Below, piece after piece: positions 6,001 to 9,000 of a DNA stretch of 23,035 bases (the first letter of the stretch is position 1; each line of letters starts with the position of its first letter). The position numbers are program-made. The DNA lies in the IMG/VR virus record IMGVR_UViG_2778261160_000005, positions 1-23,035 of that record; one strand, 5' to 3'. This stretch comes from a virus. Taxonomy: Duplodnaviria; Heunggongvirae; Uroviricota; Caudoviricetes.

Positions 6001-9000
6001 ATCCGGCGATTATTGAGTAAATTATGTTTCCATAAATGCCCCCACAGGGGCATTTGCAGTAATGAAATCAGGCGGTGAAAGTCCCAATAAAGGTTTCTAC
6101 TTTGCTGTCTTTGAATTTCTCAACAAGCAGATCACGAAATTCGTTAGCCATTTCTTCCTGGACTGCTTCCAACTGAATAATGCGCAGAACCAGTACAGGA
6201 CGATCGCCAGTGATAATGCTGAGGCGTAATTTAAACGGACGTTCTTTCAGACCTTCAAACGGAACGCATTTAAATTCAAATGCCACTGGCATAATATCTT
6301 TGGTCTTCGCTTCGACAGACTCCATCAGGGAGCGTTTTCCGCTGAAGTCATTATCTTCAAAATCAGCGGTCTGGTTTGCTTCAATCGTGATTTTACGGAC
6401 AGCCGCAGCCGCTTTTGTTGCCTGAATAGCGTCACCATTAGCATCAAAGCCTACAAGGTAGTCGGCCCAGTCTTCAATCCATTCTGCCAGTGACTTCTGG
6501 GAGTTACGCTCGCCGTTAACAGACAACAGAGCAGAGAACGGTGCTGTCTTTTTCAGTTTGAGAGTGGCGGTGTTATCTGCGTGACCTGGTTCATCAATAG
6601 TACCCAGGTTAAGCACACTGACGGCACGCATATTATCGGCATCGATAAAGCAGCGGGTGCCTTCATCTGCAAGATCTTTAGAATAACGGGTAAAGTCATC
6701 GATGCTGGCAGTGGAAAGCGCACCACGGAAACGGAAGCGATTTAAATTAAATTTTTCCAGATCATGAATGCGGAAGTTCTCAGGCAATGCCACAGCATCG
6801 GCACCAATCTTACTGATAATTTCATTAACACCCTGAGCAGAAATAAGGGCATGGATTTGATTAATTGCGGTTGCGTCTAAGTTCTGAGACATAATAAGTC
6901 CTCACTATATAAAGATATTCAGTGATGAGATAAATAATCAGTTTATTAAGAACGATATTAATGACCTGCTGCGCGTAGTTTTCCGTCAGGTTCACCGGCA
7001 AGAGTCAGTAATTGTCCCTGGTCTTCCTGCAGAATAGTCAGGCGACCACCGCGATTGACATACATCGGCGTTTCGGTGGTATCTTCTTCGGAAATTTTCC
7101 CGCGGTTAGTTGGGCGAACATATGAGAGTTTGTGTTTGATTTTCACACGGTTCTCATCAAACGGTTCGATTTCCAGATTGAGTGAGACCTTCCCTTTGGT
7201 TTTCGTGTTCATCACACCGGAAGCGACTTCACTTAGAACTGCGCCGATTTTGGTTTCAAATACGCCGCCGTCCAGCTCCCCGATAAATGCCTGCACATCA
7301 GTACTGCGTTCGCTAGCCATTTTGCTGCTCCTCATCATATCGACCCTGCAAGGTCGGTTGGTTTCTCCACAAAACAGAGAAGAACACCTGCGGTGGCAGC
7401 CGCCCGGATGGATTGGGTTATGAGCCCGTCGTCCGGTGATGCTCTTCTCTGTTTTGTAAAAAGGACGGTACCAGCCGGAAGCAAGGGTACAAGCTGGTAC
7501 CGCCAGGACTATACACAGCATAAAGTTGTGGTGCCGGGTGCCTCCCGGTGCCTGGCGAAGGTTGCACACCAGGCGGGTGGGTATCCACAGAAGGTCGACT
7601 GTCAGCCTCAACCTTAACCCGCGTGCGCTGAGCCGCATTCACCACAACGCTAAGGATTCTCTCTGGTTGAAAATACTTAGCTGTTATGTGCCTGCTTTTA
7701 GCCACATCAGGCGAGGTGGACCTGGTTATTCCCCAACAACAAGGATTCGGTTAATCTGGATATCCCCAACAACAATAAGAGTATTCAATGTGATCGCTGA
7801 ATTAACGGCAGCAATGACGGCTATTCGTGAAACAGCCCAGATTGCAAAACTAATGAACGAGGCAAAAACTCAAGCTGAAGTAAATGCGGCTATTGGTGAG
7901 CTGAACTCAAAGCTTGCGTCTATTCAGCGCGAATGCGTGTCTCTCGTTGAACTGGTGGGCTCTTATCAAGAAATAAATGCTTCTCTCAAAGCTAAAATTG
8001 CAGAATTCGAAAACTTTGAGGCTCAGACGGAAGGCTATATCCTTAACCAACTTGAGTCGGGTACTTTTGTATACGCGAAGGAGGTAATCGTTAACGGTGG
8101 CAGCATAACCATGCATCTTTGCCCAAAATGTTTTGGACAAAAGATAGTATCGATACTTCAACCATTCCCGGTTAGCGAAGATGAGCTTTTTCATAAAAGC
8201 AGGTGCCTCCACTGTGAAATAAGTTTCTGATGAATAAAAATCCGGATTACGTATCGCCTCCATCCATTGAGGAGTTGTCCAGAAAACTTAACGGCAATCT
8301 GTAGATTACTACTGTTGTGGATATCCAGATTGTTAAAGAGCTAAGCGTCCTGTAGGGCGCTTTTTTGTTGCTAACGAATCATCCTGGACTTTATATGCCC
8401 CAGGCGGCTACTTCGTGGGCGTCCTGCCTGTTCGTTGTTTCGCTTGGGTACATTATGTATCTCATAGGTACATTGTCAAGTATAAAAAAACCTGCCGAAG
8501 CAGGTTCATAAACATTGATTAGGCTTTGATTTTGTATCTTCTTGGTTTTCCTGAGAAAATCACTGTACCAATTATAGAGCAATTACCGTTGATCTTAATG
8601 TAAGGCTCAGGCCAGTTTGGGTTTAACGCTTTGAGATAACGCTGTGTCCCGTCTTCTATCAACCTTTTGAAGGTGGTTTCACCTGTATCGTGCATCAATG
8701 CAATAACGTCATCGCCGTGGCAGGCTGGTACTTCTGGATCGACAAAAATCATGTCTCCCGGACGGTACTCATCAATCATTGAATCACCAATCACCCTCAA
8801 TATATAAGTCATTTCGCCACAGGGTACAGGGCAGGGATACGTTTCTGTTGTGCTCAAATCAACCTCAGAATAGCCAACTTCTTTCCATGCTCCGGCCTGT
8901 ACCCATGATATGACAGGGACTAACGTTATTTTTTTATTAGTGATTGAAACATCAGGTTTTTTTGTGATGTTCGTTGTCTGGTGTTCTTGATCAAGCCATC

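Follow-up and report, generated by a model that had tools for sequence, protein, structure and literature searches.

The DNA analysed here, called the window throughout, is the whole 23,035-nucleotide (nt) stretch of IMG/VR virus record IMGVR_UViG_2778261160_000005 (Duplodnaviria; Heunggongvirae; Uroviricota; Caudoviricetes), and our subject is a short open reading frame (ORF) in its early-left region which, judged by sequence and by modelled fold, belongs to the Rip1 family. This rip1-like ORF runs on the plus (+) strand from a GTG at 7790 to a TGA at 8228-8230, opposite the cI repressor gene and the early-left genes yfdP and yfdQ, all three of which are encoded on the minus (-) strand. An earlier note on this DNA had described a protein of ~146 amino acids at 7790-8230, with a heptad-rich N-terminal segment and a C-terminal CPKC...CLHC ribbon, encoded on the strand opposite cI and the early-left operon, provided with its own terminator at 8344-8367, and possibly acting as a single-gene exclusion or anti-phage factor. 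The anatomy held up on every count: coordinates, length and strand are as described, the ribbon cysteines fall within residues 111-114 and 139-142 and are invariant in homologues, an AlphaFold model described below has two N-terminal helices, and a hairpin at 8343-8362 is followed by TTTTTGTTG on the + strand, giving a hairpin and T-run at 8343-8368.

A gene of the Rip1 family opposite the early-left operon

By the conservation of its sequence, the rip1-like ORF is a genuine gene and not a chance frame. Firstly, it has 121 homologues in the Enterobacterales, 41-97% identical to it, whose hosts include Escherichia, Salmonella, Citrobacter, Enterobacter, Klebsiella, Edwardsiella and Arsenophonus, among others; secondly, all 121 begin with MIAEL.., which fixes GTG 7790 as the start codon, and a Shine-Dalgarno sequence (AAGAG, 7777-7781) precedes it; thirdly, C111, C114, C139 and C142 are invariant among 69 homologues, as is the motif LKAKIAEFE(N/D)F. 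A downstream candidate start, ATG 7814 (Met9), lacks a preceding Shine-Dalgarno sequence and is not shared by the Edwardsiella homologues. We regard it as exceedingly improbable that the true gene is instead a 118-amino-acid ORF on the opposite strand (7907-8263), read within the operon of the early-left promoter, pL. That frame is open and oriented along pL transcription, but it has no Pfam match, frames antisense to helix-rich genes are frequently open by chance, and conservation across genera tracks the + strand protein, in which the invariant cysteines, the motifs, the start and the Shine-Dalgarno sequence are all kept.

Searches of the standard family collections gave little beyond a match to phrog_1244 (function unknown; E 5e-54) in PHROGs, since Pfam, PADLOC-DB 2023 and NCBIfam returned just weak coiled-coil noise for the rip1-like ORF. 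A DksA/TraR-type C4 zinc finger was considered and rejected, as a zf-dskA_traR Pfam match was absent at E up to 1. By contrast with these collections, the PDB gave a clear answer: a profile built from 69 homologues matched Rip1 in entry 9oox (chain L) with E 8.7e-21 over profile positions 5-152 of 165, and the window protein alone matched it with E 1.1e-6. Entry 9oox holds Rip1 of Escherichia phage HK446 in complex with the small terminase of Enterobacteria phage T6. The intact allele of the gene, which differs from the window copy as set out below, is 30% identical to HkaP of HK620 (BLASTP, E 2e-21), and hhalign aligned the family profile with JBD30_030 of Pseudomonas at a probability of 99.3%.

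The modelled fold leads to the same entry. An AlphaFold model made from the intact allele, not from the truncated window protein, has a predicted local distance difference test (pLDDT) score of 92 and shows two helices, at residues 2-24 and 28-79, ahead of a beta domain. When this model was compared with the PDB by Foldseek, 9oox_L and 9oox_M were the sole significant matches (probability 1.00, 27% identity), with a template modelling (TM) score for 9oox of 0.56 when normalised to the query and 0.73 to the target. The two CxxC pairs of the family align with the CxxC pairs of HK446 Rip1. Profile search and structure prediction, the check that the earlier note had proposed, thus both arrived at Rip1, and its suggestion of a single-gene exclusion or anti-phage factor is borne out as homology to a characterised single-protein defence. 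At 27-30% identity, the fold and the general mode of action are likely to be shared with Rip1; the window gene is a diverged member of this family, which was published in 2026, and not a new kind.

Members of the family were found by tblastn in 55 phage records, 31 of them from Pseudomonas. At E <= 1e-3 there are 2,757 relatives among 1.84 billion cluster representatives, and a scan of contigs with a single peptide pattern yielded 14 loci. The homologues in HK620, HK630 and HK446, like those in prophages of Citrobacter, Edwardsiella and Enterobacter, are all found in the early-left region and run opposite to the operon. The features of the window locus are collected in Table 1.

Table 1. Features at and around the rip1-like ORF, with positions in the window
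Feature	Position	Strand	Remarks
yfdQ (DUF2303), early-left	6068..6892	-	
yfdP, first early-left gene beyond the cassette	6958..7320	-	
STnc100/PasD-like prophage small RNA, between cassette and yfdP	7456..7678	-	Rfam RF02076
Region of putative sas-like antisense RNA (leader reverse complement and first ORF codons)	7687..7800	-	P22 sas homology
Conserved leader homologous to sieB promoter and 5' untranslated region	7689..7789	+	~105 nt upstream of start
Promoter-homologous segment	7727-7757	+	P22 sieB promoter alignment
CCCCAACAAC repeats	7731-7740 and 7764-7773	+	
Putative -10 element, TAATCT	7752-7757	+	alignment to P22
Predicted transcription start	~7763	+	just before second CCCCAACAAC repeat
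rip1-like ORF, shortened allele	7790..8230	+	146 amino acids; GTG start; CPKC 111-114, CLHC 139-142
Frameshift site	8217..8219	+	AAA where relatives have AAAA; GAA-AAT becomes GAA-AT
Normal C-terminal tail, left over out of frame, KFLMNKNPDYVSPPSIEELSRKLNGNL*	8221..8304	+	translation; homologue sequences
Intrinsic terminator of cargo gene	8343..8368	+	common to SfIV despite different cargo
Probable pL, TTGACA-16-CATAAT at 8479..8452	8447..8480	-	near-consensus leftward promoter
Terminator of cI transcript	8488..8507	-	conserved in SfV, annotated there as terminator
cI repressor (Peptidase_S24)	8519..9193	-	

The sieB slot, its leader and its cargo

The promoter at 8479..8452 is probably pL together with its operators. 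Operator-like GGTACAT..GTAT sites at 8447-8461 and 8467-8480 overlap it, the same motif recurs beside cro at 9272 (the right operator, OR), a TTGTACC-N5-GGTACAA palindrome lies at 9209-9229, and GGTACA occurs 16 times in the window as compared to 7.3 times expected. The rip1-like ORF lies downstream of this promoter and antisense to the early-left transcript, which is the slot of sieB, and it is a single prophage gene inverted within a lytic operon. The earlier note had spoken of the rexAB/sieB position, and only the second half of that description stands. In lambda, rexAB lies between cI and pL and is co-transcribed with cI; in the window, the cI terminator and the pL-like promoter (8452-8479) intervene between cI and the ORF, which is on the other strand.

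The DNA ahead of the gene proved informative about its expression. The leader of the window is 84-91% identical to the leaders of Enterobacter, Kosakonia, Citrobacter and Kluyvera loci, the coding sequences of which are 61-67% identical in DNA and 47-61% in protein; the conserved block begins sharply at TGCCTG, and the DNA farther upstream is unrelated. A search with a consensus of the leader found 144 phage records, lambda and P22 among them. In P22, the match reaches into the sieB promoter as annotated (29690-29720) and stops 7 nt short of the mapped RNA start at 29727, and this homology to PsieB points to a putative promoter of the rip1-like gene's own.

Read on the other strand, the same DNA corresponds to the antisense RNA sas. 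The 127-nt sas of P22 maps exactly onto the P22 leader, and its window counterpart, from 7800 down to 7687, is 70% identical. Table 2 of PMC13397905 lists P22 sas as a 127-nt species reported from infected cells only; in P22, this RNA forms a duplex with sieB mRNA, whose translation it switches (PMC12197685, PMC7067206). The double role of the leader DNA, as promoter and 5' untranslated region in one direction and as antisense RNA in the other, would be sufficient reason for its conservation. We also considered a pseudoknot in the leader (GCCUG/CAGGC with CCAC/GUGG), the second stem of which has 1-2 compensatory changes, while the fold of the single sequence does not surpass that of shuffled sequences (z +0.83); being weakly supported, it was dropped in favour of the homology to sas and PsieB. 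Readings of CCCCAACAAC, made by eye, as a CsrA, Hfq-ARN, LexA-box, sigma-32 or sigma-E element were rejected as unconserved in HK620, P22 and lambda.

Two further conserved non-coding elements flank the cassette. The presumed pL transcript opens with ~65 nt (8375-8440, - strand) that are 82-98% conserved across many phages, including ST64B, SfII, SfV, phiNP, Yersinia YeP1, mEp460 and Pectobacterium ZF40; they fold weakly better than shuffled sequences (z -1.5) and could be a leader or an antitermination element. Neither the window nor the annotations of SfV and SfIV showed an N gene. On the other side, the STnc100/PasD-like element is a GC-rich conserved non-coding block that matches RF02076 over the full length of the model with 40.9 bits, below the gathering score of 47 (E 4e-7), and folds with a z-score of -3.85 against shuffles. 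STnc100 has been linked to the PasD small RNAs of prophages (preprint bioRxiv 10.64898/2026.05.13.724894).

The variable content that the earlier note had proposed to look for in related prophages is present: the window, SfIV and SfV have common flanks and different cargo. SfIV carries an unrelated 144-amino-acid + strand gene (phrog_5286) within exactly the same leader and terminator, in SfV the cargo is a 99-amino-acid gene (phrog_3195) of opposite orientation, and in lambda and P22 the same leader precedes sieB. The SfIV gene, SfIV_36 (3390-3824 of the SfIV locus), has no Pfam or PADLOC match and is a candidate exclusion or defence gene. At two Edwardsiella prophage loci (5001-9800 of each), the rip1 homologue is followed by more + strand genes of unknown function before the repressor, with a GmrSD_N-domain gene before the repressor at one of the two only, an arrangement suggesting that several defence genes form an island here.

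We tentatively propose, at somewhat less than even confidence, that the leader is a portable sieB promoter/sas cassette into which lambdoid phages swap unrelated abortive effectors (SieB, Rip1 and the phrog_5286 protein), with antisense silencing among kin. If this were true, any phage whose pL transcript runs antisense through the same leader would silence the resident effector, exclusion by Rip1 would spare leader-sharing kin and hit strangers, and the conservation of the leader above that of the protein would be the footprint of RNA-RNA matching.

Proposed action and the shortened allele

Rip1 is reportedly described by Patel et al., in Nature in 2026, as a single-protein abortive-infection defence. 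A review (PMC13434031), a meeting report (PMC12908700) and a citing paper (PMC13601566) present it as a prophage-encoded single protein that is non-toxic by itself, and assign escape mutations to the portal protein in the case of Pseudomonas phages and to the small terminase in that of E. coli phages. According to the same three sources, 12 Rip1 monomers encircle a small-terminase 11-mer, with the amphipathic N-terminal helices making up the pore and the C-terminal half touching the ring, and the complex permeabilises both liposomes and cells; infected cells therefore die before the phage matures.

By homology, the intact product of the rip1-like gene would be harmless until an infecting phage builds its small terminase or portal rings, whereupon twelve copies would gather round a ring and form a membrane pore, and the cell would be killed before progeny are completed, as in abortive infection. 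The gene would be transcribed rightwards from the sieB-type promoter and stop at its own terminator, its transcript running towards, and antisense to, the early-left (pL) transcript that cI represses. Leftward transcription over the leader would, as P22 suggests, yield a sas-like RNA covering the ribosome-binding site and start codon, and the defence would be on in the lysogen and off during lytic growth of this phage or of a phage sharing the leader. We consider it quite probable that these parts belong together, with a Rip1-family gene in the sieB slot, a sieB-type promoter, sas-like silencing and a ring-triggered pore as predicted by homology.

Exclusion might instead take a route that involves no ring, for instance that of a SieB-like abortive factor with the membrane or macromolecular synthesis as its target, the relationship to Rip1 being one of mere ancestry. 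This would suit a gene that uses the sieB promoter and leader, occupies the sieB position and is at most 27-30% identical to tested Rip1 proteins, but the window protein is without the PF14163 similarity that P22 SieB displays at E 4e-29, and its homology to Rip1 extends over the full length in both sequence and fold. We judge such a route improbable and return to the ring-triggered pore, asking how the window copy bears on it.

That copy is shortened. Family members are ~165-171 amino acids long, their extra residues relative to the window protein lying at the C-terminus, and alignment of CACTGTG-AAATAAG in the window with CACTGTGAAAATAAG in phage PhiR49_1, which is 98.6% identical to the window over 6900-8520, places the loss of one A within an AAAA run. 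The normal product of 171 amino acids would end at 8304, and its tail is still fully open in the next frame. The window protein ends 4 residues past its last cysteine, the shortest natural members seen end 5-7 residues past it, and the frameshifted ending, EISF, retains by chance the Glu and the +4 hydrophobic residue of the normal ENKF. Since the tail is the least conserved portion of the family and natural members end so close to the last cysteine, its loss may not be fatal to function.

Genome comparisons bear on the origin of the shortened form. The segment 7640-8400 is matched in part by 2,115 of 5,426 complete E. coli genomes, and the best full-length matches in these genomes are 1 nt longer than the query. 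The exact 146-amino-acid product was seen only in draft contig NLOH01000010.1 of assembly GCA_002230265.1, which agrees with the window without a mismatch over 18,230 nt, and a self-match of this kind carries little information on how common the truncated allele is. Because the product is confined to this source-identical assembly, and because the exact 76-mer around the frameshift site occurs in 0 of 337 complete E. coli genomes carrying that segment, the deletion is either a private mutation of recent origin or an error of sequencing. The second option, an assembly or sequencing error in the draft genome of a strain that truly has an intact 171-amino-acid gene, strikes us as rather doubtful. 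It agrees with a single-base change in a homopolymer that leaves 27 downstream codons wholly intact, and with the self-match just mentioned, but 3-4 A make a short run by the standard of typical homopolymer errors, and a second, shorter contig and 3 samples share the 146-amino-acid product, although these may not be independent.

The surrounding prophage appears defective. The element starts with an integrase gene adjoining holD-rimI-yjjG. In an ORF at 21194-21841 (+), residues 8-80 match the small subunit of terminase (phrog_57) and residues 74-140 proteins of tail fibres, a chimera which suggests that a deletion removed morphogenesis genes and left the prophage defective. The early-right genes (9661-13449, -) are inverted relative to cro as compared to a Citrobacter relative, in which they lie on the same strand, after cro. 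A defective prophage would fit a decaying rip1 gene and, equally, a domesticated one that is still useful.

Several points stand against a working, ring-triggered Rip1 defence under sieB-type control. Identity to tested Rip1 proteins is 27-30%, a level at which trigger specificity is not transferable, and the mechanism of Rip1 is taken here from the review PMC13434031 and the title of the PDB entry. Two scans for a sigma-70 consensus, one of them looser, found no convincing promoter upstream of the ORF, which is explained by PsieB being a poor match to the consensus, and the sas-like RNA of this phage is inferred from P22 by homology. The frameshift takes away the last 27 residues, including a predicted beta strand (145-150) and helix (160-168), and leaves an allele whose 76-mer is missing from all 337 genomes; the host prophage looks defective, and the rip1-like gene within it may be decaying.

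Taken together, the last of these points raise the possibility, which we take seriously but hold at less than even odds, that the gene is a dead remnant, a former rip1 inactivated by the frameshift in a decaying prophage. The 1-nt deletion with its 27 lost residues, the hint of structural gene loss in the chimeric ORF and the inverted early-right genes all accord with it. The window protein nevertheless keeps its four cysteines and the +4 hydrophobic residue and ends nearly where natural members do, within the least conserved part of the family, and the rest of the ORF is undamaged, as are leader and terminator, at 97-99% identity to intact copies. Whichever holds for this one allele, a Rip1-type defence remains our preferred account of the gene it derives from.

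The rest of the prophage carries further genes of interest. The early-right block encodes KilA-N, RusA, LexA_DNA_bind, PerC, HTH_36, Phage_ASH and CP76 proteins, and contains a C4 antisense RNA (80.7 bits) and isrK (56.6 bits) at 12536-12724. Beside the integrase, at 1488-4087 (+), two genes match the PADLOC candidate defence system PDC-M01, one (PDC-M01A, E 2e-247) encoding a 584-amino-acid PtuA-like AAA ATPase and the other (PDC-M01B, E 5e-111) a protein of 283 amino acids. Downstream of the holin genes, at 17599-18744 (+), are genes for a type II heat-labile enterotoxin, the A subunit matching PF01375 (E 1e-116) and the B subunit the LT-IIB family PF06453 (E 4e-61); by these matches, the element is an LT-II toxin prophage. 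Four tRNA genes are clustered at 15735-16041 (+), upstream of the lysis and toxin region.

For the window itself the result is modest, as the family was published in 2026, the copy is truncated and the prophage is apparently defective. Its wider interest is that a hypothetical protein becomes a named anti-phage gene candidate in 697 of 5,426 complete E. coli genomes, those that carry at least 80% of the segment 7640-8400, and that Rip1 in lambdoid phages is tied into the regulatory cassette originally worked out with sieB of P22. The shared leader would tie three unrelated exclusion cargos, SfIV_36 as a candidate among them, to one antisense-controlled expression cassette. We hypothesise that antisense silencing from pL lets a prophage armed with a terminase-triggered suicide pore spare its own lytic cycle.

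Comparison with known systems

HK446 Rip1 (PDB 9oox) resembles the window gene in its similar size and in the succession of long N-terminal helices and a CxxC...CxxC beta domain. Both genes lie antisense within a lambdoid pL operon behind the same sieB-type leader, and the position of HK446 rip1 is identical to that of hkaP in HK620 and HK630. They differ in sequence, at 27-30% identity, and in length, HK446 Rip1 having 164 amino acids as compared to 171 in the intact window subfamily, which has a longer C-terminal tail. In addition, the HK phages have an N gene between pL and rip1 whereas the window has none there, and the window copy alone is shortened by a frameshift.

The Rip1 proteins of Pseudomonas aeruginosa Mu-like phages (casadabanviruses; JBD30_030, DMS3 and orf25 of D3112) are of the same family (tblastn E 2e-11). 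Like the window gene, rip1 of JBD30 is a single gene inverted relative to its neighbours. However, rip1 of the Pseudomonas Mu-like phages is situated between genes flanking the terminase region and not near the repressor, and the sieB-type leader is absent upstream of it.

The SieB/Esc and sas system of P22 and lambda is the counterpart of the window locus in slot, orientation, promoter, leader and antisense region. The proteins are different: SieB belongs to PF14163, to which the window protein has no match at E up to 1, and the window ORF has no evident internal start of the Esc type. As read from the aligned DNA, the leader homology shows that regulation and position, and not protein membership, are shared with sieB. 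What SieB and Rip1 have in common beyond this is that both are abortive exclusion genes expressed from a prophage.

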